Source of the DNA: Rhizodiscina lignyota
Taxonomy: Eukaryota
Assembly: GCA_010015805.1 (NCBI GenBank)
Contig: ML978122.1
Location: forward strand, 2,638,453-2,702,452
Length of the DNA: 64,000 bases
Reading direction: 5' to 3'
The position numbers and the translations under genes are program-made. Below the pieces are notes generated by a model. That model searched no databases and had not been told where the DNA came from. It saw only the letters and a program-made list of their open reading frames with translations. Within the stretch, counting starts at the first letter, position 1. Each line of letters opens with the position of its first letter. Of the stretch, positions 9,091 to 41,520 are shown in pieces.

Positions 9091-11417
9091 CTATTCGAGG
9101 ACTATGGTGGTCCAACACGGATTGGCAAGACGCCACAAATCCATATCGACATATCCCATTCCCACACGGCGGACGACATGGGTGCTACCTCGTTTGCGAT
9201 TAAGTATTGTCCTTCTAACAATGTCGGGACTCCGGTCTTCCATATCGACTAGCATGACGCACAACTGCCATACAGTTGTTGGAACGGGTGAGTTATGCCA
9301 TGGGCCTTTCCGCAGCGCTCGTCTGTGATACCTTCCAAGCAATGCGGCACAAATCACAATAAAGCATTGCGTGTTGCCATGCTGGAGCATCTGTGTTGCT
9401 AATATCCTGGTCAATGCTATTTTCCCGATCCGAAGATTCTGATCATCATTTGTCGTGTACAGATAAAATTCCAGACTGTTTTCACCGTCCCCTTCCGCCC
9501 CGTCCCGCTTTTCCATGGCAAGCCTGGCGAATGTAGTGTTGAATACCAAGCATCCAGGGCGTTTTCGCGCCTCTCGACGGGCGGCAGAGTCCAGCTCCTC
9601 ATGGTCCAGCATTGACCAGGGATTATGGGGGCCAGCTCGCCATGCACGTATGGAATCGAACTCCTCTGGCAAAGCGGCGTAACCATATGACGGCTGGACG
9701 GTGTGAGTCGTCCGAAAATCTATGGGGCTTGAGAACCACCACTTCTCCTGTGACTCTAACCGGACAGGGCGCGGTCTTTTCTTGTGGTCTTGTACATACA
9801 GCTTGACGAGGATGCCAATTATTTTGGCGGCCATTAGGTCTCGAATCCCAATATTAATAGCACCTGTCCACGCTGCCCAGCTCCAGCTCGGAATATGAGG
9901 GACACCTTTCCTCCGCTCGTGGTGTCTGGCCTCCCACAACAGGGCTGAAAGCAATAAATTCTCAGGTATCCCAAAAAGGAATTGCGTCTGTAGAGTCGCA
10001 GCCAACACGTTGCTTACACCGGCGAAAGCATTCAACACGTCGGCCTCGAATGAGAAATTCCTTGCGGTGTAATCCTTGACGAGTGCAATGTAATCTATCT
10101 TCGAATTTATGTCACGATCCCCCAGAGGTTGGTTGCTCTGCCTATGGCTCTCCAGTTTCGACTTGGTCAAACGTCTGTGTCCGGCTGATATGCCTGCCTC
10201 TTCTTCGACTAGGCACTTAGAGCATCTGAAATACACCTGGTGGTCTGTTACATAAAGGATCCTCGGCGACAGGATACCCTCCTGAAACGTCCAACCTCGT
10301 GTACACCATAATGATTTCGTGATAACGGACTCAAAGTTGGTTTTGATGCTGTCGCCTTCGACGAGGGACTGTCGCGTTTTGTTCGCTAAAGTCGGGCGTC
10401 TCTCTCGACCGCGGACTCCTGGCAAGCCCGTTACATCCGCCCTCTCAGTAGCAGCAACAATCGTGAAGGCGGCCTTTCCGTATATCTCATCCATGACCTG
10501 GATCTGACCATGCTTGTCGACACCATCCTGCACAATGCATAATCTGTCTATCCACATGTACGTCTTGCCGAGATCGGAGCAGAGACTCAGTGCATCTGTA
10601 ATGGCATCGGGTAGTGCAGAAGTTGTCAAGGCACTGGCCTGGCTGAGCACATCCACGGTGCTTCTGGTAAGCTGTACATCGTTTCCGTGAGCGGTATTCC
10701 AGACGTAACTCAGTGCGACGTATCTGACCGGTGCTGCCACCAACGTGATGCACGACTTTTCGACGTCGATGAGACGGAAGTTTTTTGGAACAGCAGTTGG
10801 CAGATTCCAACATGTATCGCCATGCATTTGTTCGCACTTTGATATCCAGCTCCTCACTAATGTGACATCGAAACTCGATGTATCCCACAATTCTACTCGA
10901 GACAGTTGATTCAGGTGCTGCTCATCTTCGTAGAAGAGCCGAACGCCCAAACTTTGCTGAGACTGATCCAGATAAATTCCACGAAAGTGATTCTGGTGCA
11001 TTTCTGTCTTTCCCATTAATACGAAACATAGAGCACAAGTTACAGGACCAAAGATCTCAGCGTCATCCGCAGTAGACTCTGACGAGTCAGTAGATGGTCG
11101 TCTCTGTTGATATGGATCTTCGTAAACAATGCGGATGAGCGGTCCGACAGCTACTTCGATAGCGGAAGTTCAGCGCGGTCTATGTCCATGCCGTCCGTTT
11201 CTTGAGCGATGAGGGAGCTGAGCAGCTCGCATATCAGACAATTTCGTTGTTGGATCATTTCCCCCAGGAGGACAGTACGAGTGCCGAAGCTCGAGGCAAT
11301 CATGCCCGTACACTGGTTAAAGCCTTGACAGCCGTTACACAAGCGAGGGTTTTGATTTGTTGTTGTAGCTTCTCCTCCGGCTTCATGACTTTCGAGATTC
11401 ATGCCTAAATGCGCCAA
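9091..11417 (-). CDS. HET-domain (heterokaryon incompatibility, PF06985-type) protein; N-terminal Cys-rich segment lies in a different frame
   Basis: RLIDV, YVALSYVW, WIDRLCIVQD, QIQVMDEIY, W.TRGWTFQE..LS.R, Y..R..S...D.LNAF.G, PSWSWAAW; main frame open from about 11169 down to 9091; upstream ORF 11151-11417 has LCNGC...CLICELL. Confidence 0.88.
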
Positions 11418-12439: not shown

Positions 12440-13775
12440 ATGACTGGTCCAGAAATTCGATTCGCAAAGATCAATATCAGCGGAGAGCGTACGCGCGTTC
12501 GCAAGCAGCACGCGAAGTCAAGAACGGGTTGTGACAGTTGCAAGAAGCGGAAAATCAAATGCGATGAGAAGATTCCAATCTGCTCTGCCTGTGTGAGGAG
12601 AAAAGAGGAATGCATCCGACCTCGAATCCCCGTGGTGGACGATGAGAGGCACCGCGATGCGTCTACTCCAGCATCTCAGACCTCCTCACTGGGCAGTCTT
12701 CCACGCCCGGCGACCAGCCCTGTACCTGCAGTTTCATCTAGTCTAGATATCAACTTCCTGCAGCTACGGCTGTTCCACCACTTTGAAAGTGTCACGGTGG
12801 AAACCCTGGTTCTGGGCTTTGAAGCTTGGAAGAAAGTACTCCCCCTGGCATTCGAGGTACGTTCGGGGAAGAGGGTCCAAAAGAAGGAAGTCTCACGTGA
12901 ATTAACAGTACGAATACCTAATGCATGCGATCCTGATGATGGGTGCCGCCCACCTGTCATATCTGGATCCGACAAACGAAATCTACAAGACTGCCGAACT
13001 GGAGCATCTGTCCAATGCCACTCAAGGCATTCGCACGGGACTGTCATCCGAACTCAGCCAAAGCAGTGCCGAAGCCCTTTTTGCGAGCTGTATCCTCGTC
13101 TACAACCAAACCTGGTCCTCATACGAGTACACGGATTCTGGAGTCTCCGAGAGTCACAACCTGCAGATTGATGCCGATTTTCTACTCCCGCTGGGTGCAG
13201 GACTCAAAGGTGTCATATCAGATACTTTGATCTGGGTTTATATATGGCGATCGAGTATCTTCTCCGAATGCGTGGCGTTTTCTCCGAAGCTCAGTCTGAA
13301 CCAGTGTGCACAGCATACGGTGTATCCGGAGGAGCTGTCGATGTCGTTTGTGGCAGAGTATCTCCGCCTGTGGCCTCAAATCCCGGAAGAGAACAGCTTG
13401 AGTGGTGCTGACACCAGCACCGTTGACAGTGGAAATAGTGATTTCGTTTCATACATGACAGAAGTCACACGACTTATCCCGGTCATATCTGTCCTCAAGT
13501 TGGGCAACTGCGGCATTGATCTAAAGCCCCTTGAGACGGCGATTGTGCGCTATTTGTATAGCTGGCCTGTCCTTATGGGGGGAGCTTTGCAAATGATCAA
13601 AGACAAGAAGGACTGCGTGCAATTGTTGTTTTATCACTACTACAAAGCTGTTGAGGTAGGCGTGCCGGAAAAATATTGGTGGGCGCAGAAGAGAAAGCAC
13701 ATGGCGAAGGCACTCGAGAATGGCCTGAGGGAGAAAGGGATTGTGCCGAACAATTGCTTCCTGGAGAATGATTAG
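12440..13775 (+). CDS. Zn(II)2Cys6 transcription factor, Upc2/Ecm22-like architecture
   Basis: HAKSRTGCDSCKKRKIKCDEKIPICSACVRRKEEC; LRLFHHF; intron 12857-12908 joins to YEYLMHAIL...AAHL. Confidence 0.9.
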
Positions 13776-14193
13776 ACTTGTCGTTTGCACACCTACGTCA
13801 ACATCTTAAATCGAAAAGACGGAACGCATCAAGAGTGGCGTATTTTCGGTTACCGTTCCGGGATGGCGAGGACGCATACCGTGATAAATGCGTTCTTTCG
13901 CTGGAGCTAGACGGGGGCCCTGGCTTAGCGCTCATACCTACAAAACTCTATAGGTCTGTTGTTGTGAGTGAGTGAGTGCACAGTTAGTTTAGAATCCTAG
14001 CGGTGGCTTTTAACCCCTACTAGCTCCAGCGAAAGAACGCATTTATCACGGTACCCAATTAGGTGTACGAGTAGCCCGATCGGGTGTATCTCCGCTGGAT
14101 GTATTTCCATGGCTACTTCACGTCAATGTCTGCGCGACACCTCCAACTGAAGATCATGCTCCTAACTCAGTCTTGATCTCGACTCTACAAACA

Positions 14194-30022: not shown

Positions 30023-31138
30023 TCATCGGCCCTCTGACGTTGTGCTCAGTGGAGTGGTTGGTAGGTCTGGTGGAGGTGCTGGCGGCCCAGTTCCGGTCCG
30101 TCTCCTCCTTTCTCGCTCAGATACGCCGGCAGCAGGGCTCAGTTGGTCCTGGTTCTTCTTTGCCTTGCTGTTGAATTTTCCGCCCATGCCTCTAACCCAA
30201 CGCTCCTCATCAGCGTCTTCATCTTTCCCAAGCCAGTAATCAGGTCCGACCTGAAGCATGATGCGTCCCAATCGGCCTTGGAGGCCGCTCCCCTCAGGTC
30301 GCGAAGCATCAAACGGATTCGGCGCGTGGTCGGAATCGGGCTTGCTGTCCCCTTCGCCGTCGTAGGTGTGGTATAAGGAGTATGTTGATGTCGAAGTTGC
30401 AGCAATGTGTGAACGCAGCACCGAGCGCGCGTACGAGAGGACAACAGTGCAAGCGTAGAAGCGCAGGGCCCAAAGGATCGAGATGACAACGATGCTCATG
30501 ATGCTCCCGCGATCAAAAACCACGTCCTTAATACTGCGAACGTCCAGACCAGATGGAACGCCATGCGCTGTAGCATCTTGCCCCGCAAGGAGGCCACCTG
30601 CCGGCGTCGCAATGACCTTGACGTCCGATACGTTATGTTGTGGCGACGTGAATCCGGCCGTGCTGTCGATCGTGTCTCCGCCAGGGATGCCAGCCCCAGC
30701 GTTCTCAGACGGATGCTGCGCGAGCACCATGAACCACGCGACACCAAACGCGACTGTGAATGCTGCGTTGATGAGCGAGTCGATTGCGTAAATGTACGCA
30801 AACGCGACAGTATGTATTGGGCTCGGCGGTATTGAGCGAATGTACGGGGCGAGGTAAACGCCTATGGCAAGGATGGGGAGAGAGTATATGTACATAACGG
30901 CTTGGAGGACATTGAGAGGATGGCCGGTTAGGGGCGCAAGGATGCCGTAGAGCGCGGTGGCCTTGTTGAGGAGGAGGGTGAAGAGGATGATGGTGGTGCC
31001 GGTGCGTAGTGACCATACTTTCATGAATCTCTGTCACATTCAGTCAGCGTATAGATCCATCTACAGTCGCGTGAGTACAGGTAGCTGGAGACTGACTTGA
31101 GGGCGCGGGATAGCGCGCGATGGAAAGAAGCGCACCAT
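30023..31138 (-). CDS. KEI1: Inositol phosphorylceramide synthase regulatory subunit (DUF1753)
   Basis: Exon 1 MVRFFPSRAIPRPQ, intron 31031-31096, then SLRTG...LLLNKATALYGILA.LTG.PL...Q..MYIYSL, several TM segments and C-terminal ERERRRR.GTGPP. Confidence 0.82.
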
Positions 31139-31839
31139 GGCGGCACAAGAGCTCGATGTGATGTTGGTGGAAAGTATACTGCACTTTAATGCGACGGACG
31201 AAGGGTGGTGAGGGCGAATGTGCAGGAAGGTAAGAGGGAGGGAAATTGAGGACTCGGAGGCTGCGGATCAAGATACTTGGCAGTGGCTTGGCACCCAACG
31301 GCTTTGGCCGCCCTGGGCGCGAGGTGACGTTTAATTGCGGCTGGAGTCCGCTCGTCCAACCTGCGCGGACTTCGTCAAACTCATCTATTTTACACGCCTT
31401 GCTCGGTGGGATCTGAGCACACATGTGCAAAAGCGGTGAGGTGAAGGTAACAAGTCTATTCCATCTAAAGTACAATGTACAACACTATTCAGGCAAAACA
31501 CGCACATCCATTAGGTGTTCGTTTCTATATCGATCGTGTTCATGCACTGAATGCGCTCACAACGGGGAGATGTGTAGAGAGTTAATATGGGAACGTCACG
31601 GCGTTGCGGTGGGGAGGTGAACAAAAGACTCGGAAACTCGTTACCAATTTTCCTTTTCAGCTTTTTCTATCGCGGAACGGGATTTTCTCATTTTCTAATT
31701 ATACCATACACATCCTAAATCTTTATTGGCTTTCCCTTTGAGGTCCTTCTCTTTAGTAGCGACATGACTGTCTCTACTCACTGCGCAACTTTATGGAAAC
31801 ATTCTTCCATGCGACGATCAGAAGACCAATACAACGCCG

Positions 31840-34800
31840 TCAATCAAGAAGCGACCGAAGATGATGCAGGCGACTGATTGTTAGATCCCTCTCCGATGCT
31901 TTGCCCTTAGAAAACAGGATCTCAGCCAATGACTTCTTCCGGTCCTGTACCTTCACGACGTGTTCCTCGTACGAATCTTTGATGACATAGCGTACGGTGG
32001 TGACTTCCCTCGTTTGGCCAATACGATGTATCCGTGCGAGCGCCTGTTCTTCCATTGTCGGATTCCAGTGCGGTTCGAAAAGGAAAGCTCGAGATGCGGC
32101 CGTGAGAGTCAAACCGACAGCACCGCAGGACATCGAGAGCAGTAATACCTTGATTTCCGGTTCCTCTCTCAATCTTTTTAGTGCAGTTGCTCTGTTTTTT
32201 GGAGTAACTTTGCCGTCGAGACGGACGGATTGGATACCCGCACTCTGGAGCGCGGGCTGAACGATATCGAGCGTCGAAGTCCAGCTAGAAAGCACAATAG
32301 CCTTCTCCTCTCCGAGGGAACTGAGATCTGATATCAAAGCATTCACTTTAGTAGGCCAAGAAGCTAAGGATAGAGGGCCCTCAGGAGCGGGGCTCCGCGG
32401 ACTCGGTGAGGTCGTTGATGATAGCTCAACAGCCGGGCACGAAGGATAATGCGTACAAGATATTGATCCATGCTCATCCCGTGATGAGGCGACACATTTA
32501 CCACATAATAAAAAAAGACATTGGCTGAGCCAAGGCCTTTTATATGCGTCTGTAGAGTACAAGTGACCCTCTCCTTCGAGATCTCCGATCTCGTCCCAGC
32601 ATCCAGAGCAATTGATTCCTCCAACAGTTAGCATGATATTAAAGGCATCAACAGCTGAATGTTGACACCATTCGGAAACCTTTGATGACCCAGATATAGA
32701 GCATGGCACTTCAGCTACAGGGGCCATGGAAGCAATTCCGAGGTTGCATATCTTCCGAAGAGCGTTGACTCGTTGTAGCACGTTTACGTACGACGGCCGT
32801 CCATGCGTTTCGTCCTGCAGTTGTTCATCAATAGCTTGAATGGCTTGAGCTCTTGCCGAGTCGTAGTGGATCCTTTCCTCATGTGTAAAATGGAGATATT
32901 CTATCCTATCGTGTCGTGCTGGTAATTGGATGGCACTTCCACTGCGACGAAGCATAACGTAGCTGAGAAGCTTTTTAAGCCTGTCAATAGCGACATCTTC
33001 GGCTGCATCTTTCCACTTCTGGACAATGTCAGAGTCGAAAGTTATACGATCGGCGTACGGATAAATTCGAAGAAACCGCAATAAACTGGCAAGGTCGGAA
33101 AGCTTATTCTGTATAGGCGTTCCAGTGACTGCCCATCGTGAACGTGCCTTTAAGGCACACGCAGCTCGAGATGTGGCGGTAGTTGAGTTTCGAATGCAAT
33201 GTGCTATCCAACATTCAATATCGTACGGTGTAAGAGCCGGGGTTATATACCTTCATCGAGGATTATTCGATGCCACTCGACGGAGAAGAGTATGCTCTTC
33301 GCGTTCGAAGGTCGTCTCCATTCTGATGCAATGGTCTCAAATGTTGATATGACCAGGTGACATTCGCTGATGTCGTCTATCGTTTTGACGCGAGATTTGC
33401 TGTGATGCCGTCGCAATATGAGAGACCGTGGTTGCAGATGTCTTCCTTTGATCAGTCGCCAGAAATACCACGAGAGGACTATACGCACTCGGCAATTTGA
33501 GCCTCCCATGAGCCCAGGACTAATTCAGTTGTCAGATGCTTGATGAGATATGCCGCGGTTCTACGAATGGTGTGGAACTTACGAGCCGAAGGAACGACGA
33601 GAAGTGTAGCTGAGACTTGTCGTTCATCTGTTACAGCATTATCTGAGGATAATTTGAAGTGCTGCTCGAGGTCCGATGCCATCAAGGCTATCATGCTCAA
33701 GGATTTGCCCAACCCCATATGATCAGAAACAATACCCCCAGAGAACGGTGGGGGAGCTTCGTGTCGTAAAATGCCGCTCACGTTGTTTATATATCTGCCG
33801 CACGTCAAATTGTGACCAAAAAAAATGAAACAATAATTATTAGCTCGGTAAATGTAAGAAAGGAAGTATCTCAAAATAGAGGTAACGCTTACTGGATAGA
33901 CCCTGAGCAAGACTTTCTCAGACTCCATAAATCCTGTCCTGGTAATTGAAACTTCCACCCCTTCTCTCTGTCCACCATGAATGTCAGGGCCTGTCGTTGA
34001 TGTCTAGGTAGAAGTTAGTGATAATCGCTCGCGATTGCAAATGCGAACACACTTGAGTAAAACTGTCTTCACCGCCACTGGCTGTTTTGCTTCACAGAGT
34101 TCCTTTCCAAATTCGAACCCATCGAGAAAGTCGAGAGGGGCTGATGTACATGTCGTCGGTTGTGAGTATTCATTTGGCTCGATTGAGGTCATGACAACAT
34201 CTCCCTCTAACGACGATAGCCGGTGTGGATTTGCGTAACGAATGATACGATCTGGGGAAATTGGGTCTTGGAGGTACAGCTCGTTGCGTTCAAACAGCTG
34301 TCCAATCGCTTCTGACAGCCTGGATGCGCCGTAGATTATGGCGTTCAGAGTCGGTGTGTAGCCGCAATGCTTCGTTGCTTTTGACAAGGGCTGAGCTCCG
34401 GTAATGCTCAGTCGAACACAGGTCTGCAGTTGTACAGAAGGGTTCATCAAAAGGGGGTGTAAAATAGTGAGATACCTCCTTTCCAGACATGCCAAGACGC
34501 AATTGTCCATTGTTGACAGTAATTGCCCAAATTCATTGAGTATGACATCCACTTTCCCGGCTGTGAGACTAGGGGCAACTTCGCCCACGTTCAAATTTTT
34601 GATCTTTTGATGTTAGCAAAGCTAATAGTTCCCTTGAATATCAGCGCATACCATTCCAAAGCAAACCCATTCATCTGAGGGAGACGTTGATTCATTAGGG
34701 CAACTTTGTGTGTAGTTCTGGCCGTTGCTACTTTCAGGCTCTTCCGGGTAAGGCTTATTGAGATTAGATGGTGTCGAGTAGCTCGATCCCACACCTGAAT

Positions 34801-34921
34801 TCGCATAAATATGACTTGTAGTGGGTGACGAACTCAAGGCCGTAGAGTTTATCGTGTACGTCTCGAGTCGGGGACGCTTTCGGGGGCGGTTGATTTCGTT
34901 TGAAGCCAAAATTTGGGACAT
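31840..34921 (-). CDS. SNF2-family ATPase/helicase (Rad5/Rad16-like, degenerate RING insert), multi-exon, apparently intact
   Basis: NLS-like RPRKRPR; WVCFGM; HQRQALTFM; motif I GGIVSDHMGLGKS; motif II RIILDE/AH across an intron; RWAVTGTPIQN; Cys cluster CSGC..CLFLLCGKC..C....C; EPHWNP..EEQALARIHRIGQ. Confidence 0.9.
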
Positions 34922-35391
34922 ATTGATCAATGTTTCAGTCTCATGAGGAGCATCTCGTGGTCCTAATGGGGCAAAGGAGCATGTTCAGATGTGAAATTTC
35001 ATGTACAGCGGCAGTGGGTTCTGGCCTCTCCTTGTGGTGAAGGAAAGAGGAGTTTCTTCGAAACAGGCGGTCAAGCTCCCCCATAACGCCAATGGATATG
35101 GCACCTCGCATTTGCTGCGCCTCACTGATTAAAGCCCCAAATCAGGCAACGAGGCGTAACTTGCGTGGGGCCGTCGTCCAGCGAGGCGAGGCTGCAGCAA
35201 GCTGAGGGAAGGTGAGCCTCTCCATGTCAACTTCTCGTAAAACACCATCTCTATTCAAGTTAATCCAGTCCACACATATATAGGTGAATATTATTCGCAA
35301 AAATTAGCAGTTAAGTTGTTGTAGTGAGGGTTCGTTACGATATGATATCGTAGGAAGAGGAAGGACGGAATCCTCACGAAAGGCTAGCGCG

Positions 35392-38300
35392 ATGTCTTCT
35401 CTCCACGTCCTAACTCAGCCCGAAAGTCCTGCTCGTCACCTACGCGCCGTTCCGTCTCAACAAGCGCGTCTATCCATAAAGGAGGCGTTCGATCGCCTCC
35501 AGAAGTCGGTCACAAAAGAAGATGAGAGGGAATTCTTCTCTACGGAGCTCGAAGATGTCTTCGCTACCGCACGCGATGTCGAGCGACAGCTTGCCGCTCG
35601 AGGAGAGCTTCGCAACATGCGACGTATTCAGCCATTCTTCGACTGGTTACTACAGTACTCGAAAGAAATGGAGATTCTCTGCAATGGGACACCATATCTC
35701 CCTTGGGTTTGGGTATGCTTTTGCTTCAAAGTACCGCTCAAAATTTATTGCTTCGCCGACTAATGCTGCTTTGCAGGCTCCGATAAGACTCATATTGCAC
35801 TTGGCCTCAGACTTCACCAATGCAATTGAAAAGCTCATCAAAGCTTACGGTCAGATAGCTGATTGTCTTCCTCGACTCGACCGTTTGAAAGCGACATTTA
35901 GCGCCAACCAAGATTTCCAACAGGTCCTAGCGGCAGTATATGCTGATATACTATTGTTCCACGAGCGTGCATACAAATTTGTTCGAAGGAAGGGTATGAT
36001 ATTTATCGGAGCTACATATGACCAGAAGGCTAACATGCGATGCATAGGGTGGAAGTTATTCTTCTGTTCCTCGTGGACGGTATTTCAAAGCCATTTCCAG
36101 ACCATATTGGACAGTATCGCAAGACATGCGGATCTCATTGACAGAGAAGCAATGGCCCTTCATATTTCAGAAGCACGACTATGGAGACAATCTGCAATGG
36201 ATAGAGCACTTCGATTGGAGCAGGAAAATCTCATTGCTCATTCGCAAGCAGTAATGTCGTGGCTCAAAACTAGTGACGTTCTTCAGCAAGATGAACTCGA
36301 TAATCAATTTGAAAAAGGCTCCCCTGGTACTTGCGAATGGGTCATACGCCACTCTCAGATGAAAAAGTGGATTCAACCTTCGCAAGAGACGGAGATATTA
36401 TGGCTAAAAGGAAAGCCCGGGTCAGGTACGTAGCGCAGACGAAGATTTGTTCCTCATGGCTGAGTGTTCTCTAGGTAAAACCGTACTTTGCGCCAATACA
36501 ATACGATTTCTCAAAATAGGTGGCTCAGCTACAGTCATCTATTATTTTTGCAACAATTATCGGATGGGATATCTGAACGGCCTTGCCTCTGTTCTCCAGT
36601 CGCTCTGCTCACAGCTGCTTGAAGCGGAGAAAGCGTTATACTCAATCGCCTATGAGCAATATATCAGCAAAGAGAAGTCTTCCTCGATTCAGAATCTGTC
36701 TCTCCTCCTCCACACATTGATATCGACTTTCGATAATGTCCGCATCATCATTGATGGTCTCGACGAATGGGATTCGAGTCACGCGCAAAGGATGGTAAAG
36801 GAGTTGAGGTTGATCATCTCAAAGAAAGAAAAGAACACCTTCCACAAGCTTCTCATTTCGAGTAGGGAGTTGCCGCATCTTAACCGCACATTTGCTATGA
36901 AGCCAGTAATCTCATTGAGCGATGAGAGGGAAGCCATCGACAGTGCCATTCGAAGCTTTGCGGATTCAAGTGTCTCCGAGATATTTAAGACTCTTAAGGA
37001 TGATTCGAATACCGCTCTTGACGATCGCGTCCAACATGATATTCAAAGTGACTTAGTTCGAAAGGCTGACGGTACTCTGATTTAATCTCCCTGTGTTTTG
37101 AATGTGCGTGAGCTGACACTACCCTCAATAGGCATGTTCCTTTGGGTACGTCTGGTCCTAGGCATCCTTGAGCGCGCAGACAGCCTTCACTCGCTGAAGC
37201 TCGCTGTAGCATCATTCCCCAGGGAACTGGGAGACGTGTACGGCCGTATTCTCGAGGATATGAGATCTTGTCTTGCCCCTGCTGAATATGAAAAAGCCCT
37301 CCGTGTGCTAGCCTGGATCACGTTTGCGAAACGGCCCCTCAGGACTTACGAGCTTCAGCATGGAGTCACTCTGCACGCAGGTAATACACGGTTCGACCAT
37401 GAAACGAGGCCGTTACGGAATGTCTACGACATCTGCAGGCCTCTTATCGAAAATGGTCCGCATCAGACTGTCGTACTCATACATTCTTCTGTCAAAGAGT
37501 AATTACTTCGGTTCGTATAATATTTCATTGTTGAACCTGCTGACAAAGGCAAGGTTCCTTCTCGAAGTGATGAACCCACCCGTACTCAATGCAATAACCG
37601 CTCAAGGTCTTATTTTGTTCTCCTGCACGGTGTACCTGGTGAAGGGTTATGATCTAGTCGACCCCGCTGTTCCCGACCTCATCCACATGCAAAACCTGAC
37701 GGAACGCTTCCACTCACTACATCACTACTGTCGTGCATTTTGGCATGAACACTTATTCGACTACGCAACCCTAACTCCAGATCTTGTCCAGGACAGGTCG
37801 TCTACTTTGGCTTTGCAGCTGAGGTTGCTCTGTGACGTGCATCGGAGAGTCTCTGAGGCCCAACCGTTCTTGGAACAGTTGTCAGATCGTAGTTTGACAA
37901 ACGATAAATTAGAGCAGAAATTGGCTCTCCTCGCCGACATGCACTATCTCCATCGCATTGTTCGAGAGGTGTTGATATCCCGAGAAAGGTCAAACGAGCA
38001 GCGGTTATCAGTTCAAGGTATACTATTAGCTCATGTTATCTATTCATTCAATGATCTTACTACATTTACAGGCGCCAACCCTGCCGAGGATTTGTCATTG
38101 TATAATCGGATGCATTTGAAATACGAGGACGTCGCTCATAATCTTCTTCGAGCCGATCTGGTAGATGGTCTCAGTCCTGAATCTTTGAAAGTTTTTAAGG
38201 ATTGCTTTGCACCGTCTGCATTTGTCTGCAGCTACTCCGGATGTAACAATGCAAGCATGGGTTTTGGTTCTCAGCAAGAACTCTCAAAGCACGAGATAGT

Positions 38301-38765
38301 CCACGGGCCACGATTCCGGTGTCAGAACGTCTCTTGCGATTATTCTGTGATTGGATTCAGCACTGCGCACGCATTGAAACAACACAACAGGAAATACCAT
38401 GCTCCTCAGGATAAGATTTTCGTTCCAGAAAGTCTTCGTCAACACGGTAAACCGCCGGCAGCTTCTTCGTTTCTTCAATTTGATCAGCTGACGGGGTTGT
38501 GTTAGACGAATTCGTCGAATCAACAAATGCACAGCAATCTGCTCCTGCTGCTGCTGCGCCACCAACAGCACGCTACACCGTCAGATATTTTACCCATGCC
38601 CTGGCGAAGAGATCCGCTAATCTATCACAGACCTTCGCCAACTCAGATCTCGCGATCTTCGACGCCCTCAAGAACTTCGATTTCGACTCGTTCCTCCACA
38701 CGGACGACCCGAGCGGCGCGTTTACCTTCGACAATATGAATTTCAATGTGTTCCCTAAGCGGTGA
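35392..38765 (+). CDS. NACHT (STAND/NLR-like) protein: N-terminal helical domain, NACHT, winged helix, two C2H2 fingers and an acidic tail
   Basis: ILCNGTPYLPWVWAPI N-domain; GTCEW; Walker A GKPGSG/KT across an intron; Walker B IIIDGLDE; LLISSRE; KADG/MFLWVRL; RPLR..EL; IHSSVKE; CSYSGC..H...H and CQNVSC..H...YH; intron 38447-38505 adds the last coding part with NFDFDSFLH. Confidence 0.88.
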
Positions 38766-39117
38766 TGAGGCTGTTTGATCTTTCAGCGTCTCGACTAAAC
38801 CCAGAGTCGGAATCAATATGGAGATGGCGCTCTCAAGCGTTCTTCAAATCTCTCAGAGTTATTCATATAACCGTGCACGCGTATTTCATGGCTCGTACGA
38901 TTGGTCTGCTTTTGATAGGTACATTATGCAGCTGTGTAGAGTTTGTGCAAAGTAATATGTACATAGAATGAATTTTTTTACCATCAAGGCCCATTTATTT
39001 TCAATCACGTCCGTCTAGACTCTGGAGAAAGAAAGTATCCTGAGAGCACTGCCACCAAGCCGGCAAGAACAGCTGAAGCTCAAACATCGAAGTTATACTG
39101 CTCATTGGGAAGGCAAC

Positions 39118-40207
39118 CTACAGCTGTCCACGAGGGATGCGGCGGTGGCAACTGGAAAACTCTTGTCAGCATTCGCGATAAAGCTAGTGGTAATCTCCAA
39201 CAATGGGGTAGTTGAGATGGAAGAGACGTACGTTGAGGGCTCTGCTCCATGCTTGCTTGAGCCTTCCTCGGCCTTGGCCGGTGGAGTGTAGTGATGGTGT
39301 TCGTGATGGACTGGAGTTCCCTTGTGGGTCGTGACCGCACTCGAAGAGGAAGAGGGGGTCGCGGAGTGTACTGGGGTGCTGGACGGCTTAGTCTCGACCG
39401 CCTCAGCGGATGTGCTCGGCTTAGTAGAGTGGGTTGGTTTGGCAGACGTAGACGGCTTGACAGACTTGACCGGCTTAACAGAGGTGGTCGGTTTGGCAGA
39501 TGTGGTCAGTTTTGCAGATGTAGTTGGCTTGGCAGAGGTGGTTGGCTTGGCGGAGGTAGTTGGTGCAGCTGAAGTTGATGGCGCTGCTGAACTGGATTGG
39601 GCTGCTACGCTGGGCTCGGTGCCAACGTCTGATCCGGACCACTCGCTGCAGTCCACTTCTGTAGCATTTCCCACAGCAGCCTCAGTTCCAGCGCCATCGA
39701 AGAGGCTGTTTGCACCGGAGTTCAAGCAGAGGTCAAAGTTCACGTTTGCGCCCCACGAATTGGTATCTTCCAGCGTCTGCTGCGAGCAAGGCGGGTTGCC
39801 ATCGACTAAGGAACGCATCGAGAGTCAGCTTCTTTGCCTTCTAATTATTATTCAGCGTCTTGATATTTTAACTTACTGGGACACAAGTTGTTGGCCTTCA
39901 CAACGATGGACTTGCCGGCAGTCGGAACCTGGTTGCCAGAGGTATCCGTCTCAATTGTGAGCTTGTAGCATCTACCGCAAGCTGGACCAGCGCCGGCACC
40001 CGGGCCAACACCGAAGAGGTTCTGCGAGACGGCAGCAGCATAGCCATTGGTGTAGAAGCCACATGCTACAGTGGCGGAGTTACAGTTTCCAGAACCATCC
40101 TGGTCTCCAGAGCCATATTCGGTGAACGATGCCTTGTAGGTCTGGGCCTGGGCGGCAAGGAGGAGGCAAGACTGCACAAGTGCAGAACGAACAGAAAGTT
40201 TGAACAT
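39118..40207 (-). CDS. Secreted GH45 subfamily C (PcCel45A/expansin-like DPBB) endoglucanase with a Ser/Thr/Pro/Lys-rich tail
   Basis: Signal peptide; ASFTEY, ACG, YAAAVSQ..FG.GPG.GAGPACGRCY.L, IVVKANNLCP, GN..C, NFDLC, EVDCSEWSG; internal intron at about 39.81-39.87 kb; a likely 3' intron gives a stop at 39118 (unspliced stop at 39102). Confidence 0.8.
39400..39580 (-). repeat. 18-bp coding tandem repeat (K/A-P-T/S-T-S-A) in the GH45 tail
   Basis: APSTSA APTTSA KPTTSA KPTTSA KLTTSA KPTTSV KPVKSV KPSTSA KPTHST KPSTSA in the translation. Confidence 0.85.
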
Positions 40208-41520
40208 CTTGTCGTCAAGACTAAGGATCGAACTGAGCTATGCAGTTGATGCTAACAGGTAACGAGTGACAGAGAAAATAGCCTAAAGGCTCAAAAAAAA
40301 GAGAGACTGAAAGGAAGGTAAAGACCGACGTGGGGTTGGAATCACACTATGAGCGTAAAGAAAGAAGGAAAAGAAGAGGTAGGAGGAAGACATGTTTTAT
40401 GTAAAACTGCTTAGCCAGATCCGAAATGAAGCATCTCGCTTGGTGTCGATGAGGGGGAGCTGTGGTTAGCTCGCATGTCACATCGGTCAGGGCCGATGCG
40501 GTTGAGTAACGGTGTGACAATTTAGTAAAATGAGATCCGCCTGAACCCTACAGCGGCTGCGCGGTTACGTGGATGAGTATCGGCTGAAGTGTAAACAAGC
40601 TTTTCAATTCAAGAGTGATCAACGAGATCCCACTAGATATCTGCATTGTAGCAGCTTGACTACCCTGCCGGCTTGATACAGTGAAGATCGTGTGTCTGCT
40701 CTGAGAACCTGAAAGTTGGAGAGTCAAAGGCCGGGCTTTTGACGGAAGTGAAGGTGGCAAGGGTGGAGGTGGCGGACGGAGCGTCGACGGGATGTCGAAA
40801 CCGGAGAATTTCTACGAATCACATCACGACGGGTGGGATATTAAGCTCACCTCCTGGCACAACCGCCGCACAGTTCGTTCAGCTGAAATCTATTTTCTGT
40901 CGACGATGTTTGTGGTGACTTGCTGTTCATATCCTCAACGATTGATGCTAGAGCTGAAGTTCCAAGTGCTCGTTGTGTCGTATTTCTCTTTTGGTCCTCG
41001 TTAGGTACTCTAACTGGTCTATCTAAGAACTTCCACTACAAAAGCCGCGACAGCTGCAGGGGAAAGCAAGACATGTCACAGACTTCGGTCCTTTCGGTCA
41101 TGTCATGGTGTGATTTCCTCCGCCCGTGACTCGGAACGGAAGACGTTGCGGCGCCATCTCAATCTAAGAATATCAAATCGCCACTATCCATGCACGATCC
41201 GGACAACCCCTGATGATTTGACGCTATGTCCAGCCTTTTGGATGCACTCCTCGAGCCTTGAGACTTGGCGACTCGATCTATGCGAAGTATGGAGTATTGC
41301 CGTGCAATAATGGCAGCATCGTAGGCACTCTCGAGCTGACAAAATGTTTCTCGCCTAAGCATACAGAAACGCCCCCAGGTAGAGCAGCTCTGATACTTCA
41401 AGGTATGATAAGTGAAACTATCTCCGAAAGCTCAGTTGTACGATCTTCGGAGTATTCTAAATAATAGCGAACTACTAAAACACTTGTACATAAGAGTTGA
41501 TCTATCCACTGCCATGGTAC

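Follow-up and report, generated by a model that had tools for sequence, protein, structure and literature searches.

The question raised by a 64,000-nucleotide (nt) stretch of the Rhizodiscina lignyota genome (assembly GCA_010015805.1, contig ML978122.1, positions 2,638,453-2,702,452 of the forward strand; hereafter the window) is whether two genes that run apart from one short spacer at window positions 31840-38765 are neighbours by accident or form a unit, and what such a unit might do. One of them encodes an ATPase of the SNF2 type and the other a NACHT protein of the STAND class (signal transduction ATPases with numerous domains). Their head-to-head arrangement was found to be retained across deeply diverged Pezizomycotina, the pairing goes beyond chance, and the two genes co-diverge. 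The reading favoured here, with a probability of roughly 0.6, is that the pair represents a two-gene module, widespread in fungi, whose products act jointly on nuclear DNA.

The gene models were obtained by reading both strands, and the exons were put together by script; motif and domain coordinates were calculated from the exon table and cross-checked against the sequence read. The region consists of two intact genes, and these exon models agree with an original prediction, made from the DNA alone, of two intact multi-exon genes diverging from the spacer at 34922-35391.

31840..34921, minus strand: SNF2 gene (predicted HIRAN, SNF2, Cys cluster, Helicase_C), 7 exons, 909 amino acids (aa), matching Pfam SNF2-rel_dom and Helicase_C
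34652-34921, 34053-34603, 33893-34003, 33583-33794, 33489-33519, 33251-33441 and 31840-33203, minus strand: exons of the SNF2 gene
34922..35391, no strand: shared spacer, putative bidirectional promoter, 470 bp from ATG to ATG
35392..38765, plus strand: NACHT gene (DUF7708 of Goodbye-like type, NACHT, winged helix, helical region, two C2H2 fingers), 8 exons, 992 aa
35392-35712, 35777-35993, 36048-36425, 36475-37071, 37132-37498, 37554-38017, 38072-38446 and 38506-38765, plus strand: exons of the NACHT gene

The six introns of the SNF2 gene are all of the GT..AG type and 47-98 nt long, and the family search, which listed proteins of 794 aa or longer, did not include a public model of the window's SNF2 protein. 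The public counterpart of the NACHT gene, P0001 (NA57DRAFT_72345, 975 aa), differs solely in having a further small intron towards the C-terminus. Within the NACHT gene, two introns (35994-36047 and 38018-38071) measure 54 nt each and are in frame and stop-free, such that read-through of either would add 18 residues and keep the frame.

Linkage and co-divergence of the two genes

Metagenome contigs were searched with the NACHT family; 490 stretches matched, 437 of which encode a relative, and the best 80 loci were retained and searched with a model of the SNF2 family. An SNF2 homologue was found upstream on the opposite strand at 35 of the 80 loci, most of the others having too little upstream DNA, and where at least 2 kb of upstream sequence was present the divergent SNF2 gene occurred at 29 of 30 loci. 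Dereplication at 90% or higher nucleotide identity reduced the 80 loci to 58 groups, for which the counts are as follows.

Flank of at least 2 kb: divergent SNF2 gene in 18 of 18 groups
Flank of at least 1.5 kb: divergent SNF2 gene in 19 of 21 groups
Flank of at least 1 kb: divergent SNF2 gene in 23 of 29 groups

The shorter of these flanks would take in no more of the SNF2 gene than its N-terminus, which is poorly conserved. The adjacency and divergence of homologues anticipated in the original prediction were observed not only in all 18 dereplicated lineages with the longest flanks, but also in named genomes of Fusarium graminearum and three Trichoderma species. Consecutive accessions or locus tags are held by the pair in five F. 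graminearum assemblies (KAI6755647/8, WXC63372/3, CZS73677-9, CAG1985804/5 and VTO86833/4) and in T. simmonsii (QYS92917/8), T. lentiforme (KAF3065606/7) and T. cf. simile (KAL5088923/4). The two genes are a unit under strong selection to remain head-to-head.

Trees of the two genes were compared for 17 pairs, comprising 15 loci, F. graminearum and the window; they were computed from fragments that tblastn had aligned to the window proteins, and are approximate. The distance matrices of the two genes gave a Mantel r of 0.865, a value reached by none of 5000 permutations, and the IQ-TREE trees of both genes displayed the same highly supported clades; congruence of the trees had been proposed as a test when the pair was first described. 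Pairwise identity among these pairs spans 23-53% for the NACHT proteins and 29-60% for the SNF2 proteins. The paired SNF2 proteins fall in many separate parts of a 120-protein family tree, and therefore the pair diversified as a unit.

No other conserved neighbour accompanies the pair: 0 cross-locus matches at an expectation value (E) of 1e-5 or lower were detected among 779 open reading frames (ORFs) of at least 70 aa, taken from 171.6 kb of flanking sequence of 14 lineages and the window. As a positive control, the same pipeline run without masking recovered both genes in 15 of 15 sources, and the two stray flank ORFs that it also yielded proved to be another NACHT-type gene and the tail of a NACHT gene. 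KEI1, which adjoins the pair in the window, was not conserved beside the pair elsewhere in the comparison of flank ORFs from the 14 lineages. At one locus (L013), a second, distant NACHT-type ORF (12681-14120, plus strand; 22% identity to the family) is located about 5 kb downstream of the pair.

Domain architecture of the two proteins and their shared spacer

Three features of the SNF2 protein lie outside or between its ATPase lobes.

34868..34888, minus strand: RPRKRPR resembling a nuclear localization signal (NLS), residues 12-18, read from sequence
34265..34603, minus strand: HIRAN-fold domain by predicted structure, residues 91-203 (first 113 residues of exon 2)
32437..32610, minus strand: conserved Cys cluster, 7 Cys and 1 His, between the ATPase lobes at the position of the Rad5 RING

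The NLS-like RPRKRPR was located as first described, and a KRxRL-type motif near the N-terminus is present in 7 of 10 SNF2 family members inspected and in the family consensus. The family has a common N-terminal domain that is blank in Pfam, HIRAN being matched in 0 of 40 members. A weak pointer to HIRAN in the Atlas (score 0.87; 36% of cluster members) served as a lead only. The model of this domain, computed from an alignment of 40 sequences, was confident (mean predicted local distance difference test, pLDDT, of 80), and the Foldseek search with it placed HLTF HIRAN or Rad5 at all of ranks 1-15. On the basis of this model the N-domain is predicted to have a HIRAN fold, and the architecture of the SNF2 partner is therefore Rad5/HLTF-like. 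The original assignment to a Rad5/16-like SNF2 ATPase was upheld by the two Pfam matches and is narrowed to the Rad5/HLTF type by the predicted fold.

The ATPase motifs GxGKT, DEAH and motif VI are nearly invariant in the SNF2 family (alignments of 40 and 72 sequences), and the closest solved sequence is Rad5 of Kluyveromyces lactis (E 2.6e-56, with the F. graminearum homologue P0210 as the query). The Cys cluster differs in its pattern from C3HC4, and the Pfam zf-RING_5 profile gave a weak match in 2 of 40 family members; among the 120 SNF2-family proteins listed, Pfam RING or HIRAN was found in one plant protein only. The family search, which covered longer proteins only, returned 1296 proteins at E of 0.001 or lower among 7998 scored candidates, with a top identity to the SNF2 protein of the window of 46%. 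The family is multi-copy; F. graminearum, for instance, has three clusters and Ilyonectria robusta has two. A single-copy Rad5/Rad16/Uls1 orthologue, an identity that the original prediction had itself raised, was rejected for the SNF2 gene on account of the several members per genome and this best identity of 46%.

Five SNF2 members (P0012, P0023, P0041, P0089 and P0114) are publicly named 'alpha-1,6-mannosyltransferase', which looks like a propagated misannotation. Another member, VHEMI02983 of [Torrubiella] hemipterigena (P0043 / P0242), is an SNF2 family protein with a complete C-terminal NACHT_N domain (E 1.3e-57), NACHT_N being the N-domain of NWD-type NOD-like receptors (NLRs). It may be a genuine fusion, or else an SNF2 gene and a following NLR gene may have been joined in one model; in both cases it ties the SNF2 family to NLRs in a second way.

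In the NACHT protein the following elements were located.

35629..36166, plus strand: DUF7708 N-terminal domain, residues 80-219, spanning two introns (Pfam E 1e-14)
36326..36866, plus strand: NACHT/NPHP3_N nucleoside triphosphatase (NTPase) domain, residues 273-436 (Pfam NPHP3_N E 4.8e-33, NACHT E 1.1e-7)
36410-36425 plus 36475-36482, plus strand: Walker A
36753-36767, plus strand: Walker B, DGLDE
38227..38400, plus strand: two C2H2 fingers, C834-H859 and C865-H891, from the 18-sequence alignment

The first 265 residues resemble the DUF7708, Goodbye and NACHT_N clusters of the Atlas, with scores of 0.93-0.84. According to the available text of PMC9815663, the Goodbye-like class has a four-helix core in common with HeLo/MLKL and a function described as open. 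In the alignment of 18 family members the Walker A and B residues G301, P303, G304, D399, G400 and E403 are invariant, and a weak Pfam winged-helix match follows in the NACHT protein, with an AAA lid in relatives. The C-terminus consists of a helical region and the two fingers; neither ANK, TPR, WD40 nor any other repeat family was detected by Pfam in P0001 or six relatives.

All eight finger ligands (C834, C839, H855 and H859; C865, C870, H886 and H891) are invariant in the same 18 proteins. Their spacing, C-x4-C-x15-H-x3/4-H, is atypical, x15 being longer than the classical x12, and the NACHT family profile matches the fingers of GLI, TFIIIA, AEBP2 and ZIC3 with E of 3e-4 to 4e-3. By its sequence pattern the NACHT protein carries a tandem pair of C2H2 fingers. 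The protein had been described as a NACHT STAND protein ending in such fingers; both the NACHT domain and the fingers were recovered, and the position at the very end was not, since about 100 residues forming a variable tail lie C-terminal of them.

An exhaustive search gave 524 representative clusters for the NACHT family at E of 1e-30 or lower. Within the best 150 of these 524 representatives, 95 are at least 850 aa long, and the tandem finger pattern occurs in 83 of the 95. Relatives over about 90% of the length occur in Dothideomycetes, Sordariomycetes, Leotiomycetes and Peltula, and their identity to the NACHT protein lies between 57% (Viridothelium) and about 30% (Botrytis, Fusarium). 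When the C-terminal 297 aa served as query for a word-based search, again in longer proteins only, the window's own protein alone was returned. Within one species, F. graminearum, identity among alleles exceeds 99.5% for both genes (7 and 8 alleles, from one 90% cluster).

An Rsc7/Swp82 domain (PF08624), known from a subunit of chromatin-remodelling complexes, ends the NACHT-C2H2 orthologues P0134, P0138, P0135 and P0248 (E 1.4e-28 in P0134) of Trichoderma simmonsii, lentiforme, barbatum and guizhouense, as either a true fusion or a merged gene model. No match to this tail was found in the 80 metagenome loci or the window.

The spacer between the two genes carries one element of interest.

35188..35194, plus strand: GAGGCTG, putative Crz1/CDRE-like element (calcineurin-dependent response element), 204 bp before the NACHT ATG

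In other lineages the closest aligned parts of the two genes are 520-1685 bp apart. The promoter set took in the window and 23 other lineages, each with the 700 bp that precede the NACHT start, and its commonest 7-mer was CAGCCTC/GAGGCTG, present in 16 of 24 upstream regions. None of 300 dinucleotide-preserving shuffles reached 16, the maximum being 12, and GAGGCTG occurred in 69 of 532 control windows (13%) from the same contigs. In twelve lineages the motif is located between -130 and -300. The GAGGCTG of the spacer at 34922-35391 is unremarkable alone, because the window holds 24. CACAGCC is found in 12 of 24 upstream regions. As given in the available portions of PMC2873923 and PMC11868491, GAGGCTG is the yeast Crz1 CDRE consensus and CAC[AT]GCC the top MoCRZ1 motif. 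The reader of GAGGCTG could be either Crz1 or the NACHT protein's own fingers. The conserved motif is consistent with the co-regulation that the original prediction had proposed for the pair.

Possible functions of the pair

Both NTPases retain their motifs, and the pair combines three DNA-related parts, namely the predicted HIRAN fold, the C2H2 fingers and the SNF2 motor. In the favoured reading, a module acting jointly on nuclear DNA, the SNF2 gene would supply a Rad5/HLTF-like translocase in which an NLS-like N-terminus is followed by a HIRAN fold and by an SNF2 ATPase whose two lobes flank a RING-like Cys cluster. The NACHT gene would supply a NOD-like STAND NTPase composed of a Goodbye-like DUF7708 domain, NACHT, a winged helix, the helical region and two C2H2 fingers. 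Both proteins would act as partners on nuclear DNA, the NACHT protein as a nucleotide-gated switch placed on DNA by its fingers, possibly also at its own promoter, and the HIRAN-SNF2 protein as the dedicated motor or DNA-end sensor of this switch. The switch may recruit this motor or sensor, induce it, or do both, and expression of the pair may be under a calcineurin–Crz1-type control.

A more ambitious version is offered tentatively, and we hold it to be improbable in its full extent: the pair would be a new branch of eukaryotic NLR signalling, in which a NACHT receptor, hard-wired to a Rad5/HLTF-like translocase and not to an effector of the death, protease or amyloid kind, surveys the nuclear genome for aberrant or foreign DNA. 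The DNA would be sensed through HIRAN (3' ends) and the C2H2 fingers (sequence), and then remodelled or silenced, with calcineurin–Crz1 stress control of the cassette, which would have spread and diversified through Pezizomycotina.

Rad5 and HLTF are the systems that the SNF2 protein resembles, both in its nearest solved sequence, K. lactis Rad5, and in the zinc-type Cys cluster located between the lobes where Rad5 has its RING. It differs from them in the absence of a Pfam HIRAN match, in the rarity of the RING match and non-C3HC4 Cys pattern, and in the several, at best 46% identical, copies per genome. We know of no tie to a NACHT gene for Rad5 or HLTF.

In plants, the RRS1-WRKY/RPS4 pair is a head-to-head sensor and helper NLR pair with an integrated DNA-binding domain. 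Like the genes described here, its members are transcribed divergently from a promoter common to both, and they include an NLR whose C-terminus carries a domain of the DNA-binding type; unlike them, both partners are NLRs, the nucleotide-binding domain is NB-ARC and not NACHT, and leucine-rich repeats are present. Mammalian CIITA/NLRC5 and bacterial proteins of the MalT/AfsR type couple a STAND core to gene regulation; MalT-type proteins have their own DNA-binding domain, and CIITA was reported to recruit the SNF2 ATPase BRG1. The likeness considered here is that of the STAND core, the Goodbye-like N-domain, the C2H2 fingers and the hard-wired SNF2 partner being differences.

The NWD2/HET-S and other amyloid-motif pairs of fungi, to which the original prediction had likened the locus, also consist of a NACHT STAND gene beside its partner, in a cluster conserved in several fungi (PMC3321046, from the text available). 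The analogy fails at the level of mechanism. No motif common to both proteins was detected here when the family profiles were aligned (hhalign probability 0.1%, E 0.57), and therefore the NWD2/HET-S mechanism does not apply; moreover, the partner is a DNA translocase and not a pore-forming protein, and the NLR carries fingers in place of repeats. A catalogue of Sordariales NLRs includes 34 that carry C2H2 fingers, for the most part at the C-terminus and with no canonical repeats (PMC12258605, in its accessible part), which is the same class of architecture as the NACHT protein. In contrast to the present pair, the main text of that paper uses the words SNF2, helicase and neighbo(u)r 0 times. 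Among the families expanded in mycoparasites, Table 6 of the 2011 Trichoderma genome paper (PMC3218866) gives 'SNF2, DEAD box helicase' with 3/5/5 members vs 1.3 in other fungi, and 'C2H2 transcription factors' with 1/5/7 vs 1.4; these may or may not be the families of the pair. In the literature searched, from which most subscription journals and supplements lie outside coverage, no description of a NACHT–SNF2 pair was found. As an NLR with a genetically linked partner the locus is of an already known kind; the surprise is in the type of partner and in the depth of conservation.

Several observations weigh against a joint action on nuclear DNA. Linkage by itself predicts congruent trees, and the congruence is no proof of protein interaction. 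Binding of DNA by the C2H2 fingers is assumed from their sequence, and Pfam zf-C2H2 gave no match on the NACHT protein at E of 0.01 or lower. GAGGCTG was chosen post hoc and is absent from 8 of the 24 lineages, and the Goodbye-like class of N-domains fits an immune or cell-death role better than transcription (PMC9815663, as far as its text is available). As regards linkage, L035, a strain-level variant vs L033, has lost the SNF2 neighbour at a breakpoint that precedes the NACHT gene by about 250 bp; in L037 an SNF2 gene lies 4 kb downstream on the same strand, with only 1.5 kb of upstream sequence present. The SNF2 members of Viridothelium (P0112), Lophiotrema (P0075) and Acephala (P0087) are on contigs other than that of the known NACHT orthologue; pairing may therefore not hold for every family member, and these three may be paralogues with other partners.

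The point about the N-domain leads to an account that we judge unlikely, in which the NACHT protein is an immune or cell-death NLR whose Goodbye-like domain executes death or defence. The HIRAN-SNF2 protein would then be a guarded host target or a co-sensor of aberrant or foreign DNA ends, and the fingers would be either a sensor or an integrated decoy, an arrangement comparable to that of plant head-to-head sensor/helper pairs such as RRS1/RPS4. The similarity of the N-domain to the DUF7708, Goodbye and NACHT_N clusters of fungal STAND proteins suits this account, as do the four-helix core that Goodbye-like domains share with HeLo/MLKL (PMC9815663) and the discussion of C-terminal C2H2 domains of fungal NLRs as possible integrated decoys (PMC12258605), both in the parts of the sources available. 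The size of the family (524 representatives) and the presence of more than one diverged pair in single metagenome assemblies point the same way. It is opposed by the lack of any repeat-type sensor domain in Pfam, by the lack of a motif common to the two proteins and by an orthologue-like conservation, over about 90% of the length across classes, that is unusual for fast-evolving immune NLRs. The near identity of the F. graminearum alleles sets them apart from polymorphic allorecognition NLRs and, for the one species and one 90% cluster covered, counts against the allorecognition role entertained in the original prediction.

If the fingers act in transcription, the relationship could be that of regulator and target only, the NACHT-C2H2 protein being a signal-gated transcription factor and the SNF2 gene its main target through the shared promoter, with no complex formed; this we regard as decidedly unlikely. 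The conserved promoter element is short, of a length readable by two fingers, and a divergent layout is typical of such pairs; however, the element is a known Crz1 site, and therefore another factor may bind, and one third of the lineages (8 of 24) are without it. The observations made here would suit a physical complex just as well. A short spacer with a conserved element, 470 bp here and short elsewhere, would also suit an indivisible bidirectional promoter that keeps together two genes serving unrelated processes. That the pair is retained in 18 of 18 lineages amid an otherwise wholly changed neighbourhood, and has diversified as a unit, is hard to explain thus, and linkage without joint function is considered very unlikely. 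Last, both families are large, as adjacency by chance of members of two expanded families would demand; chance is refuted by the same arrangement and orientation in 18 of 18 lineages, the congruent trees and the adjacency in named genomes of two classes, and its probability is negligible.

Fungi have hundreds of NLR-like genes, nearly all without known function, and the few that are understood signal via amyloid motifs to pore-forming proteins; HIRAN-SNF2 motors are of the kind that remodels replication forks. A large NACHT family with full-length conservation across classes and a fixed genetic partner is a testable handle on a non-canonical NLR, and the presence of the pair in Trichoderma leaves it open to experiment. 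The pair connects STAND switches with DNA translocases in a eukaryotic setting, and it provides a context for the extensive, unannotated expansion of Rad5/HLTF-like genes in fungi.

Other features of the window

The neighbour of the pair named in the original prediction was confirmed by Pfam, beyond the 3' end of the SNF2 gene and outside the module.

30023..31033, minus strand: KEI1 (Pfam Kei1 E 2.8e-50)

A scan of window positions 30-40 kb against Rfam gave no matches, and a search for repeats framing the pair found only weak, chance-like pairs. A look-up of RNA runs listed none for 31500-39000, the one data set that matched carrying all sampled words, those of spacer and introns among them. 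A HET-domain ORF of 692 aa (9091-11169, minus strand; Pfam HET E 7e-30) is located 21 kb away from the pair. Other genes of the window are of the housekeeping type, namely the C-terminus of YVC1, Cdc27/Pol32, TBCD and Nuf2, or accessory, namely a glucuronyl esterase, an ABC transporter and an expansin-like gene (39848-40237).

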